The notes beneath the pieces were generated by a model, which did no database searches, had not been told where the DNA came from, and saw nothing but the letters and a program-made list of their open reading frames with translations. From Prorocentrum cordatum (taxonomy: Eukaryota), in the NCBI GenBank assembly GCA_963575745.1, contig CAUYUJ010000003.1, forward strand, positions 868,001 through 932,000: 64,000 bases of DNA, read 5' to 3'. The stretch's first letter is position 1. Each line of letters starts with the position of its first letter. The position numbers and the translations under genes were made by a program. Shown piece by piece: positions 21,210 to 53,869 of this stretch.

Positions 21210-21309
21210 NNNNNNNNNNNNNNNNNNNNNNNNNNNNNNNNNNNNNNNNNNNNNNNNNNNNNNNNNNNNNNNNNNNNNNNNNNNNNNNNNNNNNNNNNNN
21301 NNNNNNNNN
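21210..21309. other. Assembly gap (100 N)
   Basis: Run of N. Confidence 1.
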
Positions 21310-23499: not shown

Positions 23500-26400
23500 T
23501 CATATAACGGGTAACGTGGGCAACGGCAACACAGCCAGCCTTGCGCGAGGTGCGTGTTGTGCGCGTCGTGGACCACCAGGGCGCCAGTCATGACCGCCTT
23601 GAAGTCGAGCCGCTGGTTGCCGTGGAAATCCAGGTGGCAGCGATCGATCTCTCCCTTGGCACGTTCCGTTCTCTGCTAGCCATGCTCGTGCACTCTGCCC
23701 CTTGTCTGGCCCGCTGCGGCAAGAGACGCGCCGCCAGCGCGGGTGGAGCTTCCGCAGATCGTGTCCAAGCTGGGCTGCTTTCTCCTGGGCTGTCGGCGGC
23801 TTCCTCCTCTTCGCTCTCCCCTGCTGGTGGACCATGTTGGGGTCCTCAGACGTGACCGCCATGTTGATCCCGAGCAGTCCGTTGTGGACGGCCGCCGTGA
23901 TCTGGTTGCGGATCTGCTGCTTGGCGATGGTTGCTGGGTCGAGCGCTCCATGTTCTGCGCCCCAGCCTGCATATTTGTCGGCCATCTCGTTGCCGATCGC
24001 CCGCCAGGTCGGCCCTCCAACCTTTCCAGCTCGGCGGGGTGCTCGATCATGTGGCTGGGGATGTGGTGGCCCATGGTGGCGTCCGTGCTGCGCTGCAACT
24101 GCTGCTTCGTCATGAGCCAGAGGTGGTAGTCCACACTTCTGTAGCCGAGGTCCTCGGGGTCTTGGATCTGCTTCAGCGCGTCGAGGGCATACTTGCAGTC
24201 GCTGACAATGTTGATGCCCTGGGCTGTGGCCGCCGTGGTGTACCCGATGGCCTTGCTCACAGCTGTGAGCTCTGCCCTGGGCACCGTGCGCGGCGCCCTG
24301 ATAGTCCCGCGCCGGGCTGCCACCTCCTGCGGTAGACCCCCCTCGCCGAGGTCGAAAGCCGCGACTGCCCAGCCGCGCCTCGGGGAGCCCGGGGCCCTCG
24401 GCCGTGGCGCCTGCACCTCCCGAGCCGTCCGTGAAGACGTGAAGACGCAGTTGGCTCTGACCTTGTGCCCCATCTGGACTGCCGCTTGTGCCTCCGCGCT
24501 GGTGCAGAACATCTGCGCTGCCTTGGCGACGCCCTCATCTGGGTCGACCTTTGTGGACAATGCCATCAGCGGGATGCCTCGGAGCCAGAAGTGCACGTCC
24601 TGCTGCTGGTTGAGCGCCTCCTTGTCTTTCTTGGCCAGGTCGGCGTTGTTGCTGTGGCCGATCTCGTCATGTGCAGGGCAGTCGTAGTAACGGTGCTCTT
24701 CTGTTCCCACCGATTCTCCGCATCTCGCGCAGACCTCTTCTCCTGCCTGGCTGAGGTTGGCAGCCCTGCGGCTCTCCCTCGCCCAGATACCCGCCACTAT
24801 TATCGTTTCCAGCATCGCCGCCTCGGCGTGCTGCCCTTTGCGCCGTCGCCTGCGCAGGTGGCGCTGCAGCTGGCAGAGGTCCGCTCCTTCACGCAGGCCT
24901 TCACCATGTCTGTGTGATGCGGCCTGTTGCTATAGCTGGTCCTGCGCGCTAGTCTGGACCTCCTGCAGCAGCGCGCCGAAGTGGGGGATGTCTTGTGGCT
25001 TGTAGGCCCAATCATCTCCTGCCGGGCAGATCCAGCTGCCCAGCCGATGCGGCGTCCAGCGCAGGCCCATCAGCTGCACGATGACGCCTGCCATCGGGCC
25101 CTTGACATGGCACCACCTCCTGTTTGGTTCCAGCTCCTGGAGCTTCGCAATGGGCATGTGCCGCGCCGTGGGGTGGTCCACTATCGTGAGCCAGAACTGC
25201 TCGACATGGTCCACGATGGCTCGGGTGACTGCTGCCTGCGCGCCTCGCTGGATCAGAAGAATAGTTGACGTGCAGCGCCCTGCTTTGTGCCCTCCCGTGA
25301 GGAGCGCCGCCTCCGCGGCCCTGACCTCGGTCGCCTCGGTTGGCGCGATGCCGCGCGCGGGTAGGTCCCGCGCCTGGTGGCCGTAGGCGCCTGCCGCGTA
25401 CACCTTCGCCGCGCCCTTGGCGTCCGTCTTGGCCAGGTCCTTGAACTTGCCAATGCGCTGTTTGGCCTTCGCCTGCCCGTCGATCCGCGCGCGCCGGGCG
25501 TCTGAGCTGCTTGCCGAGCCCTGCGCCCGCACCAAGGTCGCGGACCACGCCTGGCCGCTTGTTCGGGGTGCCCAGGCTGTCAAGCACGCTGGTGATCTTT
25601 GTCTGGAGGTCCTGGTCCGAGGCCACTACCGCCGTCTCGTTGGAGATCGAGATGGTGGCCCTCGCGAAGCCCTGATGTACCAAGCCTGTAACGTTCTTGA
25701 CCTGGGCCTGCACCTGCTTCCTGGCGCCCGCTATCTGCAAGGCTAGGTCGTCCAGGTACTGCTGGGTGGCCACGAACATGTAGTGCTTGCGCGCTGCGTT
25801 CAAGATGCCATAGAGGAGCGGCCGCGCGAGGTCCACTGCTTGCCAGCAGCCAGCGACCATGCTGTTGGCTGGCTCGAAGGCGTCGGAGAAGAGGCTGCGC
25901 GCCACGACCGCTCTCGGGGCGAGGTACATCTGGATGGCCATGGCAAGCGGCAGCAGGGGGTAGTGCAGGTCGCTGCCCTTTTCAATCAGCTGGTCGAGGC
26001 CTATGCTATCGTAGGAGTTGGCTGCGTCGTAGAAGATCCCTGCCGCGTGGAAGCCCATCTGCACTGCCGCCTCTGCTCTCATGAGCCAGTGCATCGCCGC
26101 GCGGAGGGCTGATGATCCTGCCGCCGCCGTGTCCCAGAAGCCTGATGCCGCTTTGCTCCAGGTCGCGATGATGGGCCTCCTGGCCGCGCTCCAGATGCGG
26201 TAGGGCATGTGCATGAGGCCTATCGGGCGCTCGCCTCCGATTCATGCCTTCTTTCCCAGCAGGAGCTCCAGGACCAGGTAGAACTGCCAAGGCCAAGCTG
26301 CTCGAGCCACGCAATTCAGCAGGCACTGCGCGAACTCCGTGAGCTCCTGCTCCCCCATGACCCTCAGCTCTGGCGCCCGCCACCAGTCTGCCCCCTGTCC

Positions 26401-29400
26401 TGCATTACGCTCTAGGTGCTGGATGATGGATCCGATGATGTGCTGGTCGAGCGGCTCCAGGTTGTTATCCTGTGCCCTGGCTGCCGTTCGGAGCTTCTGC
26501 GGCGCCGCCTGGATCTGCTCGGCCTGCGGGGCGTCTCCCGTCCACTTGCGCTGCCGGGCTTCCTTGCGCAGGTCCACCAGCTGCCGCGGGCGCGTGACCA
26601 CCTGGACCTCGCGCTCCAGGATGTCCTCCAAGTGGCTGCGCTCGGCCGCCTTGGTGTAAGCATAGGCCGTCTTCGCGCTGCCTGCCGTCGCGTCGTGCAC
26701 CCGGTGGACGTGCACCTTCTTCGCTGCTTTGGTGAGCAGCTTGGCGGCGCTCTTGACCTCCTCGGCAACCTTGATACAAGTGCCTGGGTCTGCTAGGGCC
26801 CCACCCGCTATGGGGCCGAGCATTGCCAGTAGCTGCTCCTGCTGCTCCTTGGCCGCGCCGTCTTCTTTGGTACTGCCGTAGTCTGGGCAATGGAGTTGGA
26901 GTGCGATCTGTCGCCTCGTTCGTGCCTGCTGTAGCGTCTGGTTGCCTCGCTTGATGCTGGCCTCCTGCTTTCTTCGACTACTCGGGCCACTCCTCGCTCC
27001 TGGGCCGTTTGCGTGCTCAGCTGCTGTTGCATCCTGTGGCTCTTTTGGCCCTTGCTCTTGCTCAGGTTGCTCTTCGGGATCGCGCGGCTGGCCTGCTGCG
27101 CCGCCTGCCGTTGCCTCTGGCGGCCGGGGTTCTGGCCTGCGCCCTGGCGCTCTATCCCCGAGCGCGCGACGCAGCAAGCCTCGCGGTGCTGCCAGTTCCC
27201 TCCAGCGCTGCATCTCCAAGTCGCAGCGCCCCGCGGGGGGCCACGCCTGCCGACCTCCTCAAGAAGCCTTGGCGGCGAGGAGCTGCTTGCCGCCATGCGC
27301 TCTCGCACTGGTTCCAGAGAATGTCCCTGAGGCTGGCGCGCGGGCGCCATCCTCTGATCAGCTGCAGCAGTCTACCGCCCCCGCCGTTGCCGATCATTTC
27401 TTCGAGGGGGGGGGCAGGCGCCATGTCAGCCGCTGCTCGCTGGAGTTCGGGCCGCACACAAGGTCGCCCATCCGCGTGGCTCCTCATCTCTGGAGGTCGA
27501 GGCGCGTCGCCGCGTAGTCGTCGACATCGCGACCCCTTCTGCGCTGGATCTCCTCCGAGAGCCAGGGCGAGGGCAGGCGCATGTCTTGCGGCGGCTCTGC
27601 TGGCGCGCCCTTCACCGGTGCAAGGTCACCGCTGCGGCTCCCGCTGCAGCCTAACCCCTCGCCGCGGCCTATGCCCTCGCCGCGCTGGGGCTGGCTGTGG
27701 CCTTGCCCCTCGCCGCGCCGGGGCCGGCAGCGGCCTGGCCCCTCGCCGAGCTGGGGCCCTGCTGCCCCTGCTCGCCCCGCTGCCGGCGCCCGGCTTTTAC
27801 CGCCGGCTTCCTGGTGGATGTCCCACTGCCAGTGGTACCCGACGCAATCCTCCTCATCTTCGAAGGGGTCGTGATCTTCGATGCCCACGGTGCTGCGTCC
27901 TGCTGCCGGGGGAAAGGCACCCCTCTGAATCCCCTCTGCGCCACCTCCCGGGCAGCTGCGGGGCTGGCCCACGTCGCGGTCTGGGGCGCGCCCCGCAGCG
28001 GCGCGCTTGGGTGGCGGGGGGCCCTGCCCCATCTCAGAACTGCAGGAGGCGGCGCCCCCCCCATGGACTGCCGCGCGCCCTGGGCGGCGCGCCGGCATCT
28101 TTTTTGGACAAGCGCCCCCGCCCCAGAGGTCCAGGGCGCGTCCTTTGGCGGCGGTGCTGGGCAAAGGCAGCGGCGCCCGTCGCAGCCTCTCTCCGGCCTG
28201 CTCGCGAGCTCCTGGGCCTCGGCCTGGGGCGGGGGAACCTCCTCCAGTGCTGCCTGGTTCATGCCAATGTGCACAGTGGGCCGCTGCCGTCGCCTCCCCC
28301 GCTGTCTGCTTGCCCCTGCTGCTGGGGCGGTGCGGGGGGGCCCTGGCCCCGCTCGGTGGGGGCGCGATCCGCCGAGCGTTCTCCCGCGCCCTTCGACGGG
28401 CTCACGGCTGGCGAGGGGGCCCCGGCATCGCTGGCTGCCTGGCCCGATGACGCGGCGGCGCTGGGCTCGGGCGCCGACGGGCCCAATCCACCATCTGAGC
28501 CTTCGTCGGTTTGGGCCTGCGGCTTGAGGGTTTGGCGCGCCGCCTCTTCCTCCTCCCAAGCCCGCGCGTCGCGATGCGAGAGCTGGCTCACTAGCGAGGC
28601 GATCTCTGCCCACCGCGCGCGCGCGCCTTCCACTCGGCGCCTGCCCACGCGAGGGCAGGGGCCGCGTCCTGGATGCTGATGCTCTTGTAATCCGGCGGCC
28701 TGCCCTGCCCAAGGTGCTTGCCGCGCTCGTCGGCGGGGGGGCCCGCGCTCTCGCGCAGGCTGAGCTCGAGCGCGTCCGCGAACTGCCCACGCCGCCGACC
28801 TAGTTGCAGCATGTCGTCTCCGATCAGCGCGCCCACGACCGTGCCCTGCAAGTGCGCGGCGAGCTCGCCCAAGGCCCGCGCTCGAACTTCGGCGGCCGTG
28901 GCCAGCCAGAGCTCATCGTGGACGACGTGCTGCACCTCCTTGTCGCAGTGCAGCTGCGACACTGGCTCCGCGCCATTCTCGTCGCCCTCGCAGCCTGATT
29001 CAGCAAGCGATTGCTGTCGCCTTCACATTGCTTCTTGCCCTCCACGGGCGGCCCCGCGGCAGGCTGCGCGCGACTTGGGCATCTTCTCGATGGTGACTGG
29101 CGGTTCGATGGCCGCTGGTCTTCGTGGGCCCCCCCCCTCTGAGCTGTCGGGGTCTGCCGTTCAGCTTGGGCCTGACTCCGCTGCGCGGCTTCCACGGCGC
29201 TGTCCTGATCAGCTCCTGCTCGCCAAAGTGCGGCGCGAGGCCTGTCGAGATGAACGCGTAGTCTAGGCAGCGCGCTGCGCCCGCAGCTGGAAAGCACGTC
29301 GGGGCCTCGTTCTCTGCTGCAACCACCTGCGCATGTAGCGCCCCGGGCCAGAAGCTGTCGTTGAACCCCGACGGCGCGATGTTGAAGTCGCCCGCGGCAG

Positions 29401-31313
29401 CCCAGGCCCCCCCCCCCCCCTGGGCTGCCATCTTCTCGCGCAGGTCGCAGTGCAAGTCAATGTTCCTGTCCGCCGGGCCCGTGCCGCACTCCAGGTAGAT
29501 GAAGGCTACAACGGAGCGCACCTTGTGGAGGTTGGTGATCACTACCGTGATGTCGCTGCCCTCCCCCCTCTGGTCGCGCTCGTCGTAGCCCGCAATCCTG
29601 TCCTGGATGTCCAGCGTGCTGCGCGCGAGGGCACGGGTGCCCTCTCTGGTGCCTTCTCCTTCTCCTGGGCGTGCTCTGGTCCAGTGGCTGCGAAGCCCGC
29701 TCTTCCGCAGGGCCGCTCTTGCCTTGCTGACGCGCGCTGTCTGGCGCAGGCGGTGCTCCGCCATGCCGATGATGTCTCTGTCCTCCGCAATGTTGATCTC
29801 CCCGAGGTAGCCTTGCGCCTGGTGCCCCCCGGTGGTGATGTTGAAGAAATCGACGTGGAATTGGCGGCGAGCCCTCTTCTTTCTCGCCTCCTTGCGACTA
29901 CCCTGGGGACTCATCGCTTTGCACCTCTGCGACGGAGACCTCAGCTCGCCGGGCCCGGGCGACCATGCCCCTTGCCTGCTGGGCGTGAGCATCCACTCGG
30001 GCTCGGCGTTCTTCGTCTCTGCTGCCTGCTCCTGCGTCTGGTTCGGCAGTTTCGCCTGGAGCATCTGACTCAGCGGCGCCGGTGGGCTTGGCCGCTGCTG
30101 CTGCTCCAGAGCCTGCTGACTCTCTTGCTGGCTCGCGCTGTGGCGCTGGGCTCGGGCAGAGCTTCTTGCCTGACGGGCCCTGCGAGCGATCTGCCTGCTC
30201 TGCTGCTGCATCTGGTTGGCGTTCGAGGCGGCCCTGTTCGATCTGCCGCAGCTGCTCCTGGTACTTGGCCGTCTCTTCCGCCAGGTACTGCAGGTGCTTT
30301 GCCGTCTCCGCCTCGTGTTCATTGACTTTGTTGGCCATGGCCTCGCTCTTCGCCTTCGCCGCGCGCCAGACTTCTTTCTCTGGCTCTGCCCACCTGTGGA
30401 AGTCGTCGGGCTCCTTCTCGAACTGTTCCAGGAGGGCGGCCAGGTCGGGCTTGTCGGCTGGTGCTGCTGCGCCTGCTGGAGCTGGTTCAGGCTTGCCGAC
30501 TGGGCCTTGAGCGTGTCGAATTCCTCCTCTGCTGCGGTGGCCGACTCCATTGCCTCATGCAGCTTGCGTTCACTATCTGCCAGATGCTGCTTGGCGCTCT
30601 CGACCGCTTCTCCTGCTGCTCGCGCCCGCTTCTGGATATTGTCCAATCGTCTGGCTGCTGCTTCCACTGCTTTGGGTCCAACTGATGGTGCAGCTGCTGG
30701 TTGCTGAGATGCCACCAGTCCTGGCCAGAGCGCCTCATAGTGGGTGCGGACGGGATCGTCCTTGGAGAGCTTGTCGTACGCTGTGGCTGCAGCTGTGTGC
30801 TGCTGTTGGTCTCCACGCCCCTTGCCTCCTGCACCTCCTTGATGCCATCCATCCGCCCGCATGACTCTCGGCGAACCATTTACTCCTGCTCCTCCCCATG
30901 GGAGGTTGGGCCTGCTGCGGCCGTCGTCGTCGTTGAAGATGTGGCCTTCTGACACGAAGTGGGCGAGGCTGGCGCCACATATGCGGGCATCGTTTCTGCT
31001 GGTGATGTTCGTGCAGTAGCGCCACCTGCTGCACTCATCGCACACCACATAGCTGCTGCGTGGAGGACGGCTGCCGCTGCCGCTCCTCCACGGAGCCCTC
31101 TGGCCATGCGGAGCCCCCGTCCAGGCGCTGCCCGCCCCGCGTCCGCCGCCGCCATGCCCCATGGCTGCTGCGGTGCCGCCCGCGCGCGCCCGACGCCCGT
31201 CAGAAGACTGTCCTCGGTCCAGAGGTCTCCCTGCGGCCTGGAGGTTGGACAGCCCCCCAGGTTGGAGGCTGGACAGCCCCCCAGGTCATCATCTTGAGCG
31301 AAAACGGTGACGG
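23500..31313 (-). mobile_element. Near full-length degenerate LINE: ORF1, APE endonuclease, RT, Zn finger, RNase H
   Basis: ORF1 from 31162 (CDEC Zn motif, coiled coil); APE motifs FFNIT, MAEH, AGDFN, PTC, LDY; RT motifs RPIGLMHMPYRIWS, YDAANSYDSI, MVAGC, QYLDD, VRDLG; CARC...HRYYDC; RNase H motifs TVPRAEL, SDCKY, NEMADKYA. Confidence 0.92.
31293..31313 (-). other. Relict dinoflagellate spliced leader at the LINE 5' end
   Basis: Minus strand CCGTCACCGTTTTCGCTCAAG versus CCGTAGCCATTTTGGCTCAAG: 17/21 ungapped, in sense orientation, 130 nt upstream of the ORF1 ATG. Confidence 0.75.
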
Positions 31314-32924: not shown

Positions 32925-33112
32925 TGCAAAACAATGACAGCATACATGTTTTTTCTGTGTAAAGGGTCAGGGTGTGCAAGATACATTGTATAACGATGTA
33001 GAGCGGGCGCGGAGCCTGGCCAGGCTTGAGCCTAACGCCCATGGCCCAACACTGCCCCCCACTATGCTACAAGCATGCAGACTGCCCGGCTGCCTAGCAA
33101 CCTACCGTTTGA
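32925..33112 (-). repeat. 3' LTR of copia-2
   Basis: Collinear with 53702-53869, with an identical core gagcgggcgcggagcctggccaggcttgagcc and an insertion of about 20 nt. The inner end is degraded. Confidence 0.75.
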
Positions 33113-45019: not shown

Positions 45020-45244
45020 ATAATCTACGCGCCCACCTTAGCTACTAGACTGGGTCCGAGGGACCAAAAGCATTGTTTTTTTTGCTGGTTGGAGTGAACG
45101 TAAGGTTTAAGGTGAGAGAGAGCGGGTTTCCATAGGGAACAACATTGGGGCGGCTGGAGCCGCTCTCCCCCCAAGGAGGGATGCATCCCCTTGACGGGAG
45201 GCCGACCGACCGAGGGGCGATGCATCCCTCTGGCCGATCCCCCC
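45020..45244 (-). repeat. Split direct repeat B2 (3' terminus)
   Basis: Same as 45616-45840 apart from homopolymer lengths. Confidence 0.95.
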
Positions 45245-45403
45245 CCTTGTAACAGAGGGGAAATGCCTCCCTCATGCGCGACCAACCACGGAGGGGAGAT
45301 GCATCCCTCATGCGCGAAGTGTCGCGCTCGAGGCTTCGTCGCTTCGCTTACCCTCTTGGCCCCCCCCCAGCTTGCTGAATGCAAACCCAGGGCGGGAGGG
45401 TGG

Positions 45404-45615
45404 GAAAAATCAAATCGCAAGGTGAGCGCGGCCACCGCGGCCCGTCGCCCCCCCTTCCTCGCAGCCCCTCGGCGCGGGCAGCGAAGGGGGGGGGCGCCCC
45501 CCCCCTCTCTTCGCCCCTGCGCCCCGAGCTGCATGCGCGGGCGACGTTTCCAAGGTGTCCGCGCGCGTACATTATGAAGCACTCACCCATGCCTGCCCGG
45601 GCCTAAAGTGCACCC
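45404..45615 (-). repeat. Split direct repeat A2
   Basis: Same as 53402-53620 apart from a 6-nt indel, homopolymer length and one edge substitution. Confidence 0.95.
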
Positions 45616-45840
45616 ATAATCTACGCGCCCACCTTAGCTACTAGACTGGGTCCGAGGGACCAAAAGCATTGTTTTTTTTTGCTGGTTGGAGTGAACGTAA
45701 GGTTTAAGGTGAGAGAGAGCGGGTTTCCATAGGGAACAACATTGGGGCGGCTGGAGCCGCTCTCCCCCAAGGAGGGATGCATCCCCTTGACGGGAGGCCG
45801 ACCGACCGAGGGGCGATGCATCCCTCTGGCCGATCCCCCC
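45616..45840 (-). repeat. Split direct repeat B1
   Basis: Abuts A2 directly (gtgcaccc|ataatc on the plus strand). Confidence 0.95.
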
Positions 45841-45936
45841 AACGCTGCTCACCCCCACGCCCCGCTCGCTCACCCAACGCTGTTCACTTACCGAGCAACA
45901 CAATGTATAACGGCGCGTCGCAGCCACACGTGGGGG

Positions 45937-48333
45937 CTACCCGCGGGCGAAGCGCCATGCGCTCTCCAAGCTGCCCGTCCAAATACGACTGTCCACGCCG
46001 ATTCGCTTTGCTGGAAATCGATGTCGCCTCACAAACGCGTCACTTCCTAGCTGCCTCGAAATCCCGTCCGACCAATTGGTCCCCGAAGGCGTGAATTCCC
46101 ACCACGTGGTGATCGAACGGCGGCTCGCCAAGAAATTAGTGAAAGCAATCGACCGATCCAGCGCGGCCGGCACCGCGCAGCCCTTGACGTACGAATGCAG
46201 AGAGCTGGTATTGTCTATGAAATACAGCACGCGGCGGTTTGCCAGCCGCTTAGCGTGGCGCTGGTAGATGATGGGCGGCATCGCGCCCTCACACAGCGCG
46301 ATGGGCTGGCCGCCCTGCCTCAAGCGCTCCTCACAGTAGCCCCACATGCCCAGCAGAGCCCCGTCAAAAACGCAGAAGCCAGCTTGCCGATAGCCGTCGG
46401 CGCAATCTAACAACACGTACCCCCCTGTCGGCCACGCGTCATTGTCAGCGCGCGCGTCAGAAGCAATGAGAATCAAAGGCTCGCTTCTCGGCGCGATCTC
46501 GGCCACGCGGCTCGGCATGTCTTGCAGAATTATATAAAAGAAATCGAGGGCGCGCACCAGGCAGTTGCTCAGGGTCCAAGGCGGCTGATCTGTGTACTGC
46601 CGTTGCCTCAGAGCCCCCATGCCTGCTTTGCCCACGCCGTGCCACGCCGCTCTGGCGATGAAGTTGAGGAGGCCTCTCAACTTGCTGGCGTCTCTGGGCG
46701 TGAGCCTGCCCTCGCTGCGCCTCGCCGCAATGAACGTCTTCGCCTTTTCGACGAGAGTGTCGCGCGCCCTGAAAGATATGACATTCGAGTCCAGCGAAGG
46801 GCCGAAGGTGTGCACGACGCCCAGAAAATCGCCGGACGGGCTCATCCTCCTCGTCTTCGAGGGAGCCACAGGCGTGCCCAACTCCGCGCAAAGGCACTGT
46901 GCGGCCTCCTGACCAGCGCCCCCAGCTGATTCAAAATCAGTAATATTCGCGTCGTCCACATACATGGCAAGCAAAAGCGACAACACGCGGCGCTGCACTG
47001 CCTGCAGGAATCCTCCCCATCGCGCGAACTGCATGACTGACGCGGAGAAACCGAAAAGCAACGCCCACGCCACCTGGAACCTCCATTCTCCCGTGACAGG
47101 ATCGCGGACCGCCACGACGTTCAAGCGCAAGTGATCTGGGTGCACTGGGACTGAGCGATAGGCCGACGGCAAATCTTCGCCCCCCGACACGAGCCTCTCG
47201 CGGGCCACGTCGGCACCAGCGTCCGCACACGCTTGCCGGACCACCCTCGCATCGATGACAGGCTGGAATGGCGTACACATTCTTTGCCGCTCACAAAATG
47301 CCGTCGCTTCGTTCTGCCTACCCCGACGCCCGTCGTCGATTCTCCTCCTTTTTCCAGAAGGCTGAATATGGCAAAACGCAGGAATCGGCGCCCACTGCCC
47401 CGCGCCGAACTCCGCATCAATGTCCGACTTGCTTCGCAGCGGTGCCGCCCAGCCTTTCTTGCACTCTTCCTCGCAGCTATCCCAGAGAAATTGGCCCTCC
47501 TCACTCGCGCGCTGGCGATCCAGTTCCGCCAGCAAGACTTTGGACTCTCCAAGCAGCGAGTGCACGGGCATGGGAGCTTCATACTCGGATGGTTCAAAAG
47601 CACCCGTATTCTCCATTACGCCAGTGATGCCAAAGCCGGTGACAAAGCGCAACGCCAGCTTTTGGTCTGGCCACCGCGCGAGCACCACCAGCACGGCAAT
47701 GAGTCCGGCGTGAATATGCCCCGCCACGGCGCGCACAGTCGGACTCTGCCACTTCAAGAGCTCCGCCGTGAGGGGCTTGCACCGGCGACTAAGCTCTTGC
47801 AGCGCGTGCATGCTGCGCAACCGAAACTCCCTCAAGTCGCGCAGCTCTGCGGCGGTGGACTCCGCCGCAAATTTCAAGTCATGCGGAGCAGCAACGTCCT
47901 CATCGAACGGTAACTTCCCCCGCTTCGCGAAATCAACCGCGGCGCGGAAATGCTCTTCCTCATCCCGGCTGTGGCCCAGGAGAGGCGGCAACGCGTGCTT
48001 GGCCGAGAGCGCCCCGGCCTGTCGCCCCGCCGCGGCTTCCAGCATGGCAGACGTGCCCTGGCCTGCCGTGCTGCCAACTGGTCCAGCGATGCTGCGCTCG
48101 TCTAGCCACTTTGCGAAATCCACGAACGGCGACTGATTGACTAGATCTTCCAATGACGGAAAAACAAAACTGCTCAGCCATTCCCTGGGGAACATGCTGA
48201 CGACGCACTGCCGCAATTGGCGCTGCGACCACATCACGGGGAAGTGCCTCGATACCCGCGGCGCCTGCGCAAACGAAGACGCGCCGTCGCTCGGCGCCCC
48301 GCGCTGATGCGCTCGCGCCTGCGGTGCCGACAC
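45937..48333 (-). CDS. Reverse transcriptase-RNase H of the YR element (true start uncertain; frame is open back to the gag stop)
   Basis: 798-aa open ORF: RRIDD, DLPSAYRSVPV, LLFG, MYVDD, FLGV; RNase H ASDA, IALCE, FIDN, NWSDGISR. Confidence 0.95.
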   Translation of the reverse strand: MSAPQARAHQRGAPSDGASSFAQAPRVSRHFPVMWSQRQLRQCVVSMFPREWLSSFVFPSLEDLVNQSPFVDFAKWLDERSIAGPVGSTAGQGTSAMLEAAAGRQAGALSAKHALPPLLGHSRDEEEHFRAAVDFAKRGKLPFDEDVAAPHDLKFAAESTAAELRDLREFRLRSMHALQELSRRCKPLTAELLKWQSPTVRAVAGHIHAGLIAVLVVLARWPDQKLALRFVTGFGITGVMENTGAFEPSEYEAPMPVHSLLGESKVLLAELDRQRASEEGQFLWDSCEEECKKGWAAPLRSKSDIDAEFGAGQWAPIPAFCHIQPSGKRRRIDDGRRGRQNEATAFCERQRMCTPFQPVIDARVVRQACADAGADVARERLVSGGEDLPSAYRSVPVHPDHLRLNVVAVRDPVTGEWRFQVAWALLFGFSASVMQFARWGGFLQAVQRRVLSLLLAMYVDDANITDFESAGGAGQEAAQCLCAELGTPVAPSKTRRMSPSGDFLGVVHTFGPSLDSNVISFRARDTLVEKAKTFIAARRSEGRLTPRDASKLRGLLNFIARAAWHGVGKAGMGALRQRQYTDQPPWTLSNCLVRALDFFYIILQDMPSRVAEIAPRSEPLILIASDARADNDAWPTGGYVLLDCADGYRQAGFCVFDGALLGMWGYCEERLRQGGQPIALCEGAMPPIIYQRHAKRLANRRVLYFIDNTSSLHSYVKGCAVPAALDRSIAFTNFLASRRSITTWWEFTPSGTNWSDGISRQLGSDAFVRRHRFPAKRIGVDSRIWTGSLESAWRFARG

Positions 48334-48432
48334 ATCGGACTCCTGCTCGCCCGATGACTGCGCTGATTGCGCCTGGCCGAGAACGCGCGCTTGCTGCGCG
48401 CGGAAACCTGGCTGGGCGCTGGGTGCGCCCGC
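48265..48432 (-). other. Two candidate GC-AG introns in the gag-pol linker: 48265-48318 (54 nt) and 48373-48432 (60 nt)
   Basis: CAG|GC...CAG|G boundaries, with the same size and 5' sequence as the other introns. Both are frame-neutral, so less certain. Confidence 0.55.
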
Positions 48433-48519
48433 CTGCGCTGGCGCAAAGAAGCCGTGCTCCGCTGGACAGGCAACGTGCCCCCCTGCCTCGGCGCTGTCCT
48501 CCGCCCTGGCGGGGCCCCT

Positions 48520-50070
48520 TCAATACTGCGACAACGCGCCCTGCTCCGGGATCGGCGCCTTGCGGCACACGGCGGCGCAGTGATTCCTCATGCCGCAGAC
48601 GCGGCCGCTCTTGCTCACGATCATGGAGCATGCGTGCTCCAGATTCTTCGGGCAGGGCTCCGGGCACGACCCCCGATTGAAATTCTTGCACAGCTCCTTT
48701 CCGTTCTTGAGGTGGGTCGCCAAACCGGTGCTCGATCCCTTCTGCGCGCCCTTGGGGTTGCGCTGCCCGCGCCCTGCACCCGCGCCTCCCTGCTGCGCCG
48801 CAGGTGGCGGCGGGGCGCCCCGCGGGGCTCCGCGCGCGAAGTCCGCGGCAGGCCGCGCGTCGGGGGCTGGTGCGAAGCCGCGTGCGGGGATCTCCCACAT
48901 GTGCTCCCTCCTTTCGAAGACATCCTTGATGATCTTTCCCAGCGACATGGACGTGCGGCGATGCCTGCACGCCGGTGGAACGTTCGCGACACTAGCCCCT
49001 CGCAGCTCGCGGATCGCGGCGCGCCTGTCAACCCACTGCTGTCGCTCCTCCTCATCCCGCTGTTGCAGCCACTGGAGGGCCTGACTCGGGGGAAGGATGG
49101 TGGCACACTGTGCGAGCCTCCTGTGGTAGGCGAGCACGACATCCAGCGGCACCTGACGCGCGACGGACCGCCGGTTGCCGCGCGCGATGCACCGCGTTCG
49201 CGCCTCGACGTAATCCGTGCTGTCGCGATCCATTGCCTCTGGTTCCGCTGGCTGCGGATCCAACTGGACGACGCCTGCACGCGCCGCGCGCGCTGGAAAC
49301 GCCAGCGTCGCGATGCACAGCGCGCTGTTGCGCCTGCACGCGCGTGCGCCAGCATCAGTGTGTGATGCAAATTGACATACGTTGCCACGTCTCTGCGCGG
49401 TTCCGTGTCGAATTCGTTCGCTTGCTCCCCTGTGACGAGGACTAGCCCCTCCGCAATGCGCTGCCGCTTCCTCGTCATGGTCAGCTGATGCGTCAACGTC
49501 TTCACGCGGAAAACCGAATGCACCTGCGGACGCGCGCGCGAACGACCGCGCGGAGACGCGCGCAGCGCGCACAACGCCAACGCGTGCCTGCAGCAAACGC
49601 CGCGACAGCTCCTTTGAGATTCTGCTCACCAAGTGATCGCACGGCTCAGTCTTGACCCCGAACCCCAGGCGATACCTCGCGTAAAACTTGGCGCGGATGT
49701 CTTTCAGGTCACTGTTGGGCAGGAGCGCATCGAGGTCATCATCCTCGACGCCACGCTTCTTCCGCGTGTCGGAGATCGTTTCGGCCTGCCTCGCCGCGGT
49801 CCAGGCCTGGCGCAGCCGCGACGCTTGAATCCCTGGGAAAGAAAGGCCCTCGATCTTTTCGATTACCTTGGTTTCGACTTCCTGCTCCGACGTGAAGAAG
49901 TGTGTGAAATCAGCCATGCTCTCGAGGCCCGCGACTGACACCAAGTGGGTGGCCACCTTGGGGTCCAACCGGAACGCGTTGCACAAAAGCGTAAACAGCT
50001 GTTCCGCGGCCTCGCGGCCTCCCGACACAGACGGCAGCTGCAACGCCTGCCCGCCGATCGAAAGCGCCAT
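48520..50070 (-). CDS. Gag-like protein, 5 exons, 438 aa after splicing
   Basis: Exons 50070-49588, 49523-49334, 49274-49204, 49152-49025 and 48964-48520. Joins read RRLLQ|VHSVFRVK, LAHARAG|VVQLDP, TDYVE|VPLDV and WVDR|HRRTS. C-terminal Cys/His cluster CKNFNRGSC..C...HAC. Confidence 0.85.
   Translation of the reverse strand: MALSIGGQALQLPSVSGGREAAEQLFTLLCNAFRLDPKVATHLVSVAGLESMADFTHFFTSEQEVETKVIEKIEGLSFPGIQASRLRQAWTAARQAETISDTRKKRGVEDDDLDALLPNSDLKDIRAKFYARYRLGFGVKTEPCDHLVSRISKELSRRLLQARVGVVRAARVSARSFARASAGAFGFPREDVDASADHDEEAAAHCGGASPRHRGASERIRHGTAQRRGNVCQFASHTDAGARACRRNSALCIATLAFPARAARAGVVQLDPQPAEPEAMDRDSTDYVEARTRCIARGNRRSVARQVPLDVVLAYHRRLAQCATILPPSQALQWLQQRDEEERQQWVDRRAAIRELRGASVANVPPACRHRRTSMSLGKIIKDVFERREHMWEIPARGFAPAPDARPAADFARGAPRGAPPPPAAQQGGAGAGRGQRNPKGAQKGSSTGLATHLKNGKELCKNFNRGSCPEPCPKNLEHACSMIVSKSGRVCGMRNHCAAVCRKAPIPEQGALSQY
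48965..49587 (-). other. Four GC-AG introns in gag: 49524-49587 (64 nt), 49275-49333 (59), 49153-49203 (51), 48965-49024 (60)
   Basis: All have AG|GC...CAG|G boundaries; the first two switch the frame into and out of exon 2. Confidence 0.85.
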
Positions 50071-50399
50071 CGCGCACGTGAGGACAAGTCGCAACGCCTC
50101 GCGCCCTCAAGATCGCTGGCACGTCTGCTCGCGCGCTGAAAGCAACGGCTTGCGCATGGCGTGCGCTGGCGTTATTGCGCGCTGCAACATGCGCTCACAA
50201 ACTGCTGATGCAGCAAAATGCGCGGACATGGCCACGCCGCACCGCTTGTGCGCTCATACTGCGCTTGCGCGGCCCCAGCGCAGGCTGCTGATGCAGCACC
50301 CGCGCACGCACGACAACTCTACGATTTCCGCTCGCGTGGGTCGCGCTGGTGCAATATACGCGCGAAAAGCGACCGCGCGGACATGGCCGCGCTGCAATG

Positions 50400-53348
50400 C
50401 TAGTGCGTACGGCCCTGCGCCCGCGCGGCTATCGCAAGCACGGCATCCCGGGCCGCCAGTACCGACGGCTGGCACGCCGCATGTTCCAGCTCATGGGCTG
50501 CTCGGGCCAGGAACGCCGCGCGATTCTGGCACCTGCGGCATACCAGATCACCGTCGGTCAATCTTCCGACCCACGTGGGGGAAGCCAACGTGACGTCGCA
50601 CGCGTTCGTCAGCTGCTTCCTGTTGACTAAGACAGAAGTCTTCTCCGCCTTTCGTCGCTTGCGTGATCTGATACGCGGAGAGCCGCTGACTTCAATGGCG
50701 ACGTGATGACGCTCATTCGTGACAATCCAGCCTAGCTCGGCGGGAATGCCGATCGTTGCCCCGTCGCAAACCTTGGGCAAAGCGCACAAGCGACGCGCGC
50801 GCTCGCCATGCAACGGCGCTGGCGAGAAGACCGCTGCTGATGCGGGGTTCAGTCTGGCTGGCTGCGACGGTGGCGCTGGGTGCGCCTGCACAGCGACCGA
50901 ACGCTTTGCTCGCATGACGCGGCTTCGGGCGCTATTTGCGCCGGCCTGCGGGGCGCCCGCTACCGTGTCTCCCACGGCCGATGATGGCGCGGAGTGCGCC
51001 TGAACGAAACGGCGGCGCTGCACATGCGCACATTACGCTCCCCCCCGGCGCTGCGTGCGCCTGCACCGCTGTTGTTGCTGCAGCGGGCTGCACATACGCC
51101 CGCGACGGTGACGCTGCCTGCGCCTGCGCGGTAAAGAAGCGCTCCGCGCACGACGACCCCTGGCGCTGCGTGCGCCCGCCTGCGCTGATGCTGCTGCAAC
51201 AACGTCGCCCCCAAGGGCTGACGTTGGCGCTGCATGCGCTCGCGCTGCTGCTGCAGCTGCCTGCACATACGCCCGCGACGGTGACGCTGCCTGCGCCTGC
51301 GCGGCAAAGAAACGCTCCGCGCGAATTACAAAGCCCCTGGCGCCGCATGCGCCCGCCTGCGCTGCTGCTGCAACAACATCGCCCCCAAGGGGTGACGTTG
51401 GCGCTGCCTGCGCCTGCGCTGCTGCTGCCGCAGGGGCAGCTCCAACCGCTGGCGCCGCTGCTCCCGCAAGCTCCCCGGCACTCGGCTGTGCTGCCGGCTT
51501 TGCCCGCTCGACGGGCAACGCTGCGGATGACTGGCTGTCTCTTTCCTCATCGCTGCCGATCTCGCCTTCCTCTAGCGCGCGTTTACCAGCGATCCCGCGC
51601 AGGCGCTGCGCCCGCCGCGGCCGCTGCGGCGGCTGGGCAGCGCGGCGGCCCCGGCTGCGGAACTGTCGCCTCAGCGCTGCGCTCTGCTCCCCGTAATTGG
51701 ACGCGGTGAACGCGCCAAACCGCCGGCGCGCCAGCTCTTTCTTTACCGCCGGCGGCAGAAACTTCGCGGGCTCGGGCGCGCCCTGTGCCGCCAGCAGCTG
51801 CATCGCGCGGCGCCGCGCGCCCGCTGCGACCTCCTGCGCGGCTGGCGTATCCCACCAAGCTTTGACCCCTTCGAATCGCAGGGGGGCTGGCAAGCTGGCC
51901 ACGGCCTCGTGAAACACTTCGTGCATGTACAGACGGACGAAACCCTGCTGCTCACGTCTGGTTCCAGCGTATCGCAACGGCATCATGTTCGGGGCGCCGG
52001 TGCTTCCGCCACCATCGCGGGGCGTCCAGCCCCCGCCAACAACGCGCTCTGTCCACGGAAGCTGCACGCTTTCCGCCAACGTCGGCATGAAACGCCTCAG
52101 GCTGTACGACGTGATCAGTTTCCTCTCGAGCGGTGAATTCAGACAAAGGCCGATCTCAGACTGCAGAAACTTTGAGAAGTGCGCGAGACGCCAGAGCTGC
52201 CCCGTATCCTCGTGCGCCGCGAGGCCCCTTGGCAGGGGGGCGCCTTCGCCGGCAGCCCCTGCGCGCTTATGCCACGCGTCCCAGAGCACATCCGCTGCGC
52301 AACGCGGCTCCGCGGTCCGCACCAGGCACCAATCGAAACATCCGCCGCGCTTTCCGCGGTAACATCTGAACCAGGCCAGCGCTCTCGTCCTTTCAATCGG
52401 GTACGACCGTGACAAATGCTGGAATCTCAGCCACCCGTGGCACAGCGCGATCGCTGCAGCGGCGGGAACCTCGAGCCAACCGCGCTGCGCTGCCTGTGCG
52501 GCAAGTATCTGATGCAGGAACGATACCATGCACGGCTCGAGCACGGTCGCTTGCCGCAACTCTCCCCCCGCTTTGCTCGCGGGCCGCGCGTCTGGCTTCA
52601 TCGCGTCTTCGAGCGCGAACGGCGCACCGAGATACTTCTGCAGCCACTTCAACCGATTCCACACGCGCACCCCGGAGGCTTGTTCACCGCACATATGACA
52701 TATGAACTCGTCCACCATCAGTGTGCTGCCAGCAGCCTCCGCGGAGAGGGGCTCGAGCTGCCGTGCTCGGGCCCACGCCTCCCATCTCGCCCAGACGCGC
52801 AGCGCGTCCCGGACCCCCGCGCTCGCGAAGCGCGCCAGCCTCTTCGCCGCCGCGGACCCGGGTCCGCACAAGCGCTGCGCCTGGCCCTCGGGGAGCCCCC
52901 GCGCCAAGCCGTGCGCTGGGCCCCAGGACGCGGACAGCTGCACCGCTGCCCCGGCCGCGCTGGCGCGCTGCGCGGCGTCCGCCTCCTCTGTGCCGGAGGC
53001 GCTCGCCGCCGCGCGCTGCACGCCGCGCCCCCCTCTTGGCGGGCGCAAGCCAGGGAGGACCATCGCCAGCGCGCGTGGCGGAGCGTCCGCCTTGCGCGCG
53101 GGCGGCGCTGACTGCGCCTCGCGGGCCACCCTGTGCCACGCTGCCACTCGCGGATGCCCCGCGAGCTGCCGAGCTCGCCGCCACGCCTCCTCCTGTCCCG
53201 AGGCCGCGGCTGCCTCCACCGTGGTAAAGAAAAATGCCAGGTCGTCGACGTCCTCGATGCCTACCTCCCTGACGAAACACCAGAAGCGAGCGCGCGCGTC
53301 GACCGGCAACGTACTCCCTATGGCGGCCAATCCACATTCGCCTGCCAT
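50400..53348 (-). CDS. Tyrosine recombinase with a long Ala-rich tail and C-terminal His/Cys cluster, 903 aa after splicing
   Basis: LRFQH (R), RGK (K), YSLRR (HxxR box with H>Y), GGW and MPLRY (catalytic Y). Three minus ORFs are joined by splicing; the tail has RHH...C...CRRC. Confidence 0.88.
50886..51356 (-). other. Four GC-AG introns in the YR tail: 51297-51356 (60 nt), 51124-51179 (56), 51000-51060 (61), 50886-50945 (60)
   Basis: All have CAG|GC...CAG|GC boundaries; the 56- and 61-nt introns coincide with the two apparent frameshifts. Confidence 0.82.
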
Positions 53349-53401
53349 CGCCACCGCCAAGCAAATGGATGCGAAGCGCAAAAGACAGCAGAGAAACCCG
53401 A

Positions 53402-53620
53402 GAAAAAACAAATCGCAAGGTGAGCGCGGCCACCGCGGCCCGTCGCCCCCCCTTCCTCGCAGCCCCTCGGCGCGGGCAGCGAAGGGGGGGGGCGCCCCCC
53501 CCCCTCTCTTCGCCCCTGCGCCCCGAGCTTGAGCTGCATGCGCGGGCGACGTTTCCAAGGTGTCCGCGCGCGTACATTATGAAGCACTCACCCATGCCTG
53601 CCCGGGCCTAAAGTGCACCC
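53402..53620 (-). repeat. Split direct repeat A1 (5' terminus)
   Basis: Matches 45404-45615. Confidence 0.95.
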
Positions 53621-53682
53621 AAGACCGCCAAGGGCACGGGGCGAAGTCACGCGGGCCATGGCGGCAGTTGGTAGAGCGACGC

Positions 53683-53701: not shown

Positions 53702-53869
53702 TGTAAAGCGATGGCACAAGATCTGTTTTTGCGTGTCAAGCTGAAGGGTATGTGGAGCGGGCGCGGAGCCTGGCCAGGCTTGAGCCACACGCCCATGGCC
53801 CAACCCTGGTCCCTGCTATGCTTCAAGCGTGCAGACTGCCATGATACCGTGTAGCCTAACGTTTGTGCA
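53702..53869 (-). repeat. 5' LTR of copia-2
   Basis: TG...CA ends, homologous to 32925-33112, adjacent to the PBS. Confidence 0.8.

Follow-up and report, generated by a model that had tools for sequence, protein, structure and literature searches.

Related candidate introns in a DIRS-order retrotransposon of Prorocentrum cordatum have probably multiplied as exon+intron cassettes

Retroelements copy themselves through RNA and are therefore expected to lose introns. A stretch of 64,000 nucleotides from Prorocentrum cordatum (NCBI GenBank assembly GCA_963575745.1, contig CAUYUJ010000003.1, positions 868,001 to 932,000 of the forward strand; the whole stretch is referred to as the window) raises the question of how such an element can hold ten candidate spliceosomal introns, several of which resemble one another. 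The host element lies on the minus strand and, judged by its split direct repeats, Cre-like recombinase, gag-like open reading frame (ORF) and divergent putative reverse transcriptase (RT)/RNase H, is a DIRS-order retrotransposon. A preliminary description of the locus proposed that the introns formed an introner-like family, which had spread within the element or had come from a genome-wide mobile intron family. Here, we found that six of the ten candidate introns (A1-A4, B1 and B2) are, on sequence comparison, truly related and form one family. In the best reading, which we consider probable, exon+intron cassettes in the element were amplified by tandem and segmental duplication, splicing being presumed.

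The ten candidate introns (51-64 nt) all have a GC donor and a CAG acceptor followed by G (10 of 10 in each case). Their positions, with the two regions in which the six related introns (I units) lie and the duplication found there, are as follows.

50826-51416, minus strand: region A, in the linker of ORF1, where mini-exons (E units) alternate with introns A1-A4 (I units)
48205-48519, minus strand: region B, linker between an in-frame TGA and the RT, with B1, one E-type mini-exon (48372-48319) and B2, collinear with region A
51297-51356, minus strand: intron A1, 60 nt, I-type
51124-51179, minus strand: intron A2, 56 nt, I-type; ORF1 continues only if it is removed together with A3
51000-51060, minus strand: intron A3, 61 nt, weak I-type member; contains the in-frame stop of unspliced ORF1
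50886-50945, minus strand: intron A4, 60 nt, I-type
48373-48432, minus strand: intron B1, 60 nt, I-type
48265-48318, minus strand: intron B2, 54 nt, weak I-type member
49524-49587, minus strand: intron C1, 64 nt
49275-49333, minus strand: intron C2, 59 nt, flanked by a 13-nt junction repeat
49153-49203, minus strand: intron C3, 51 nt
48965-49024, minus strand: intron C4, 60 nt
51076-51428, minus strand: tandem duplication of exon+intron+exon (Tandem Repeats Finder: period 173 bp, 2.0 copies, 88% matches)

The six 5' ends quoted in the preliminary description (at 51356, 51179, 51060, 50945, 48432 and 48318) were recovered as quoted on the minus strand, each directly after CAG. According to the portions of the literature available to us, GC donors (G(T/C/A)) are frequent in dinoflagellate introns, the acceptor AG is followed by G, and an identical repeat of 2-11 nt spans the two junctions (PMC4083563, PMC5032977, 10.1101/2020.10.14.339549); such junction repeats are described as a general trait of these introns (PMC5032977), and mostly GC donors have been reported for a GC-rich haptophyte (PMC4028052). 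The boundaries of the ten introns are of this dinoflagellate kind, as are those of two inserts in a relative (L001) considered below. Junction repeats across the ten introns measured 3-13 nt (mean 7.4), the longest being the exact repeat at C2 (10 nt upstream and 3 downstream). The introns also differed from the exons in composition (GC 74% versus 65%; CpG 20.7 versus 12.0 per 100 nt), and the six in-frame introns had no dip in GC at the second codon position.

Pairwise likeness was measured by global alignment (+1/-1) against dinucleotide shuffles; a stringent local scheme (+2/-3) missed the likeness between A1 and A4. Clear whole-length likeness was observed between A1 and A2 (z 9.2, the duplicate pair), A1 and A4 (6.0), A2 and A4 (4.4), A2 and B1 (4.3) and A4 and B1 (4.0). 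When the shared start and the final CAG were trimmed, 14 pairs of I units still gave z 3.8, which none of 300 shuffles reached; compared with exon segments matched for GC and length, the values were z 4.6 for whole units (0 of 500) and z 2.6 for trimmed ones (13 of 500). Since trimmed I units are still alike, the likeness is more than a donor consensus. The preliminary description had allowed for similarity amounting only to an extended donor consensus; this is not what we found, and the position of the shared motif behind the donor varies as well (see below). Its view that the introns are related to each other holds clearly for A1, A2, A4 and B1 and weakly for A3 and B2, and fails for C1-C4, which are not members of the I family (I against C, z 0.5). 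Likeness among C1-C4 themselves was borderline (trimmed z 3.0, reached by 1 of 300 shuffles and 7 of 500 matched exon sets; whole z 1.5) and may stem from their (CG)n-rich composition.

The mini-exons between the introns turned out to be a repeat family as well. These E units (54-63 nt; rich in Ala, Pro, Ser and Gln) gave z 6.6 over 19 pairs, with none of 300 shuffles reaching it, and encode variants of A-(Q/H)-x-A-(P/S)-(T/P/S)-S. Two alignments between regions A and B run across exon and intron alike. The first pairs an exon end, the whole of B1 and about 25 nt of the next exon with an exon end, A2 and its next exon (z 6.2, 0 of 300 shuffles). The second pairs the 3' part of A3, the following exon and the start of A4 with the 3' part of B1, its following exon and the start of B2 (z 4.7, 0 of 300). 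The youngest example is the 173-bp tandem duplication, within which the first two quoted 5' ends fall, as had been noted before; aligning its two copies revealed a 4-nt indel in the intron and indels of 3 nt and 9 nt in exon sequence.

These alignments bear directly on the idea that the I units derive from a genome-wide mobile intron family, that is, an introner-like element that also landed in this retrotransposon. Such an origin would fit the likeness of the I units over their whole length, the short direct repeats spanning the junctions and the many introner families reported in dinoflagellates in the parts of the studies at hand (10.1101/2020.10.14.339549; PMC7789003). However, the likeness between regions A and B crosses exon-intron-exon and does not end at the intron limits, and an E unit adjoins every I unit. 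In the available sections of two studies, terminal inverted repeats of 8-20 nt within 30 nt of the ends serve as an introner criterion (PMC7789003, 10.1101/2022.07.25.501386); the longest exact terminal inverted repeat here was 5-6 nt in nine of the ten introns, not exceeding shuffles, and 8 nt in C2, a length reached by 41 of 300 shuffles. A profile search with I and E units over 136,679 nt (the window plus 15 related loci) found no further copy at E <0.5, and the sense strands of the 15 related loci contained no match to the shared motif. Taken together, the likeness across exon flanks, the E-unit family and the lack of terminal inverted repeats and of further copies in the 136,679 nt make cassette duplication the simplest account, and we regard a mobile origin as very unlikely.

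'Introner-like' in the mobile sense is therefore not supported for this family, to which the introns of the gag-like gene are also unrelated. Of the two earlier suggestions, a spread within the element holds only in the form of exon+intron cassette duplication. The copy at 48432, described as lying 2.7 kb away in a different context, does have different genes on either side, yet the exon sequence directly flanking it is homologous to that of the main array. The case shares with introners (Micromonas and Aureococcus; among dinoflagellates, Polarella, Symbiodinium and Amoebophrya) mutually similar introns, short direct repeats at both junctions and a lineage known for introners. It differs in that the copies in the window are confined to one element, the similarity includes flanking exons and terminal inverted repeats are absent; in addition, the units are much shorter than most described introner families and show no sign of insertion into unrelated genes within the 136,679 nt tested. 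Thus, likeness of introns alone is insufficient for calling an introner, and exon flanks need to be checked.

The start common to the I units deserves separate consideration. The motif GCGCA-N3-AGCGC was found 11 times in the window against 0.82 expected, a count that none of 100 dinucleotide shuffles reached, and 10 of the 11 matches are on the minus strand, the sense strand of the element, from 48372 to 53117. The motif also opens the exon pieces that follow acceptors (51413, 51239, 50885 and 48372) and occurs once in ORF1 proper (53117), so that half of the ten sense-strand matches are exonic and the motif is not intron-specific. In the E units it encodes Ala-(Gln/His)-x-Ala-Pro. Counted from the donor, it begins at +1 in A3, at +5 in A1, A2, A4 and B1 and at +7 in B2 (0, 4 or 6 nt behind the donor). 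A palindrome, GGCGC-N5-GCGCC, reached the same count in the window (11; expected 0.91), and nine of these copies are inside the element. It might be supposed that this start was kept by selection instead of descent, either as an extended splice-donor context or as a GGCGC-N5-GCGCC hairpin or binding site. Indeed, the arms of the palindrome are conserved and the five bases between them variable, the palindrome is part of the minimum-free-energy fold of A1, A2 and B1, and A4, one of the more diverged members of the family once the motif is trimmed off, retains it. Selection of this kind appears highly improbable, however: the register to the donor is not constant, the motif is missing from C1, C3, C4 and both L001 introns, it is equally present in exons, where the peptide A-(Q/H)-x-A-P explains it, and the likeness of the I units extends beyond it.

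Descent of the I units from E units was also considered and was not supported, since beyond the shared start the two are less alike than shuffles (z -2.3). An origin of the introns from exon copies therefore cannot be shown. A bolder proposal, which we hold to be quite unlikely, is that the lineage makes and multiplies its own spliceosomal introns: I units would arise from duplicated coding repeats sharing the CAG|GCGCA..AGCGCC start, and splicing would be restrained by the conserved GGCGC-N5-GCGCC hairpin, which lies on or beside the donor, so that part of the RNA remains unspliced as a template for retrotransposition. If true, this lineage would show intron birth in progress, together with regulated intron retention, inside a retroelement.

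In the cassette account, the GC-AG introns (I units, 54-61 nt) and the E units would have multiplied jointly as cassettes of ~115-120 bp through local duplication of DNA (or cDNA), with the shared start GCGCA-N3-AGCGC(C) common to both unit types. The ORF1 linker would have undergone several old tandem steps, followed by the 173-bp step as the latest, and a copy of one cassette would have reached the linker that separates the gag stop codon from the RT, 2.7 kb farther downstream. Removal of the introns by the host spliceosome would yield a full recombinase (core, linker and Cys-motif tail) and a gag-like protein, and ribosomes reading through the in-frame TGA would produce the RT. Spliced RNA of the whole element would presumably act as messenger and unspliced RNA as template for retrotransposition; with an unspliced template, the introns would be inherited in new copies.

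A more basic objection would be that the I units are not introns at all, that is, that a read-through minisatellite, degenerate and either coding or non-coding, makes up regions A and B, and that decay in the element family accounts for the frame breaks at A2 and A3. The reading frame of the tyrosine recombinase gene bears on this point.

51357-53348, minus strand: first exon of ORF1, tyrosine recombinase core and start of the linker, with ATG at 53348 (224 homologues, catalytic columns, match of the AlphaFold (AF2) model to Cre)
50403-50885, minus strand: last exon of ORF1, end of the linker and C-terminal Cys motif domain (C...CxxC), identified by tblastn to L002 and by a profile of homologue tails

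Unspliced ORF1 ends at codon 772 with a stop inside A3, and removal of A2 and A3 (56+61=117 nt) opens the frame to codon 904-944 and joins the recombinase to the Cys-motif tail. In relatives this tail is on the same polypeptide as the recombinase core, and CxxC was present in 24 of 27 homologue tails of at least 80 aa. A profile built from these 27 tails ranked the ORF1 tail first among 979 ORFs of the window (E 0.009), and tblastn matched the tail to positions 197-511 of L002 (E 2e-8); BLASTP of the tail against three homologues gave nothing significant. As for the core, the full HMMER search yielded 224 homologues of ORF1, whose alignment has invariant columns R159, K184, Y266, R269 (Y-x-x-R) and Y311 and a near-invariant W. 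This order of residues, R, K, Y-x-x-R, Y (plus W), we take to be the catalytic set of tyrosine recombinases. ORF1 had no Pfam match, and a Pfam integrase match was present in 0 of 35 family members. The AF2 model (pLDDT 90) has Cre as its closest PDB structures: all 15 matches with E <=0.001 were Cre or its engineered variant Tre (E ~3e-4, TM 0.44-0.62, probability 1.00).

The gag-like gene, with the four introns of the C group, provides a comparison with relatives.

48523-50070, minus strand: ORF2, gag-like, with an N-terminal Pfam Luciferase_N domain and a Cys-rich C-terminus, interrupted by C1-C4
48520-48522, minus strand: in-frame TGA between ORF2 and the RT ORF, which share a frame; same arrangement in L001 and L002
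45937-48264, minus strand: RT/RNase H ORF, whose conserved part begins directly after B2 (alignment with 10 homologues; YVDD)

In L002, a partial relative whose RT is ~45% identical, the gag frame is continuous save for a single frame change near 990, and all four C introns are missing exactly at the CAG|G...CAG|G limits. In the window, the frame of ORF2 changes across C1 and returns across C2, and removal of both restores the conserved gag frame. C3 and C4 are also missing from L003, L004, P0166 and P0167. L001 (RT ~50% identical) holds a 60-nt insert at the place and phase of C2 and a 53-nt, frame-shifting insert at that of C3, both bounded by GC...CAG|G, and nothing at C4. P0165, an 86% identical copy, retains C1-C3, and introns are kept in the 86-99% identical copies P0165 and P0014. 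In the favoured account C1-C4 are separate, older introns, two of them common by position to a relative with a 50% identical RT. An RT tree of six sequences grouped L003 with L004 (100/100) and placed the intron-free L002 next to the window element (82/89), leaving L001 outside the latter pair. If this tree, with its moderate support, holds, C2 and C3 would predate the split of the window element, L002 and L001, and the L002 line would have lost all its introns, which is the expected effect of reverse-transcribing spliced RNA.

Several observations weigh against the cassette account. First, A3 and B2 are weaker members: A2-A3 and A2-B2 each gave z 3.8, the other pairs of these two units only 0.4-2.5, and the I-unit profile re-found B2 only at E 0.62. 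Dispersed copies of I units may also occur elsewhere in the host genome. Second, the position of L002 beside the window element in the RT tree means that the history of the gag introns needs loss as well as gain. Third, the junction repeats are not longer than in a strict control (the observed mean is equalled or exceeded by 2011 of 20000 sets), and the enrichment of T before the acceptor was marginal (4.3 versus 3.2 per 20 nt; 1028 of 20000 random sets reach it). Finally, splicing of the ten segments is deduced from reading frames, an intron-free relative and dinoflagellate-type boundaries; four of the six I units (A1, A4, B1 and B2) are multiples of 3 and stop-free, no available relative is without them, and they could be translated.

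The in-frame, stop-free I units, the marginal pyrimidine tract and the source of the splicing evidence would equally suit a minisatellite that is read through, as would the fact that E units, too, start with GC and end with CAG. RNA folding points the same way, as only B1 (z -2.8) and B2 (z -2.7) folded better than shuffles and the other eight introns did not. On the other side, the 117 nt of A2 and A3 leave, once removed, a recombinase joined to the very tail that relatives carry on the same protein; the intron indel of the young duplication is 4 nt, against 3 and 9 nt for the exon indels; the I units are flat in GC across codon positions and higher in CpG; L002 lacks the gag introns, whose limits are of the same kind; and the A-A and B-B terminal repeats of the element are 99-100% identical, so the insertion looks young. 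We consequently think it unlikely that the I units are a decayed repeat and not introns.

Amplification of exon+intron cassettes has precedents, as exon-intron cassettes have been amplified in genes for repetitive proteins and introns have been gained by tandem duplication. As in those cases, a segment of exon plus intron was duplicated, with a young 173-bp example in the window. Here, however, the process would have taken place within a retrotransposon, whose copying through RNA should strip introns, and one cassette stands 2.7 kb off in another linker. An element that keeps ten introns, some of them multiplied as exon+intron cassettes, would indicate that intron number can grow without any transposon. 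To judge from the accounts available in part, spliceosomal introns kept through the replication cycle are also a feature of Penelope-like elements and Ogre, which belong to other retroelement orders; the window element has many more introns than these, some of which form a duplicated family. There is a practical side as well: the database proteins of this family (P0014 (NCBI), P0169 and P0174) are unspliced ORF calls that read through candidate introns. ORF callers yield wrong proteins for such elements, and public protein records for them are probably wrong in the linker regions.

The element as a whole and its termini, in the order A1-[ORFs]-B1-A2-B2 on the minus strand (terminal repeats, not the introns of the same names), are as follows.

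45020-53621, minus strand: whole DIRS-order tyrosine-recombinase retrotransposon with Ngaro/PAT-like termini, ~8.6 kb, recognized by split direct repeats, ORFs, Cre-like fold of ORF1 and RT/RNase H homologues
53402-53621, minus strand: terminal repeat A1 (5' end), 99-100% identical to 45404-45616 (families D9 and D11)
45616-45840, minus strand: terminal repeat B1, 100% identical to 45020-45244 (families D10, D12 and D14)
45404-45616, minus strand: terminal repeat A2, direct-repeat match to 53402-53621
45020-45244, minus strand: terminal repeat B2 (3' end), direct-repeat match to 45616-45840

In the sections of the literature accessible to us, this A-B-A-B layout of split direct repeats is described for Ngaro/PAT-like tyrosine-recombinase retrotransposons (PMC8547959, PMC6681497) and for the DIRS elements of the dinoflagellate Symbiodinium (PMC5890265), and the window element resembles both in its A-[ORFs]-B-A-B repeats and in a recombinase encoded by a separate ORF. 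It also agrees with the Symbiodinium elements in having an RT too divergent for Pfam, and its recombinase before pol is one of the two arrangements reported there (PMC5890265). In contrast with these groups, as far as their published descriptions were available, it lacks a DNMT domain and contains ten candidate spliceosomal introns. DIRS-order elements with introns did not come up in the literature consulted, including the available parts of PMC5890265, PMC8547959 and PMC6681497. We regard the window element as an unusual member of a known retrotransposon order, distinguished by its many candidate introns.

In the RT/RNase H ORF, the YVDD motif and RNase H-like D/E/D motifs could be read from the translation. 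This ORF has 13 homologues at 28-97% identity; it gave nothing against Pfam at E 0.01, and no relatives of the RT were found in the viral_contigs and genome_contigs sets. RVT_1 was annotated on 32-52% of the members of look-alike clusters in the ESM Atlas, and the RT of the Symbiodinium DIRS elements is stated, in the text available, to align poorly with Pfam (PMC5890265). The single in-frame TGA in front of this ORF is, from its sequence setting, a candidate for programmed stop-codon read-through. In the relatives it is at 1927-1929 of L002 and at 826-828 of L001, and the context TGA-AGGGGCC is common to the window and L002. In the gag-like protein, Luciferase_N (PF05295, E 1e-8, above the curated cut-off) covers residues 34-105 of the ORF 48520-50106, at 49756-49971 of the window (minus strand). 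Dinoflagellate luciferase and luciferin-binding protein have this domain at their N-terminus, and it is precomputed for P0165 too. Like the intron boundaries, the DIRS layout and the Cnidaria labels of the ESM Atlas clusters, it points to a dinoflagellate host.

With regard to the surroundings, Pfam searches of the 71 other window ORFs of at least 200 aa revealed only LINE (long interspersed nuclear element) domains (Exo_endo_phos; weak RVT_1 and RNase_H) and a weak BUD22, and no host gene able to supply background introns was seen among them. The window gave 0 Rfam matches at the gathering threshold, 0 tRNAs and 0 matches to a dinoflagellate spliced-leader motif with up to 3 mismatches allowed. 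A LINE-like element lies at 23500-31300 (minus strand), with ORFs matching Exo_endo_phos (E 1.5e-5) and, weakly, RVT_1 and RNase_H, and an assembly gap of 100 N at 21210-21309. Mapping of contigs from four runs gave only two joints, neither at an intron, although such contigs cannot show intron absence. Intron-containing contigs bridge C1-C4, A3, A4, B1 and B2 (5307 nt, run X3) and also A2 and A1 (X3, X2); we draw no inference from them. One low-depth contig (run X2) joins 53336 to 45404 through 34 other letters; it is most simply a copy that differs between repeat A and the ORF1 start and was mapped to the other A repeat, and a circle or tandem junction is not required. A 116-nt repeat (84% identity) is present at 32996-33111 and at 53750-53865, the latter copy just beyond the 5' end of the element, and may belong to another repeat that received the insertion of the element.

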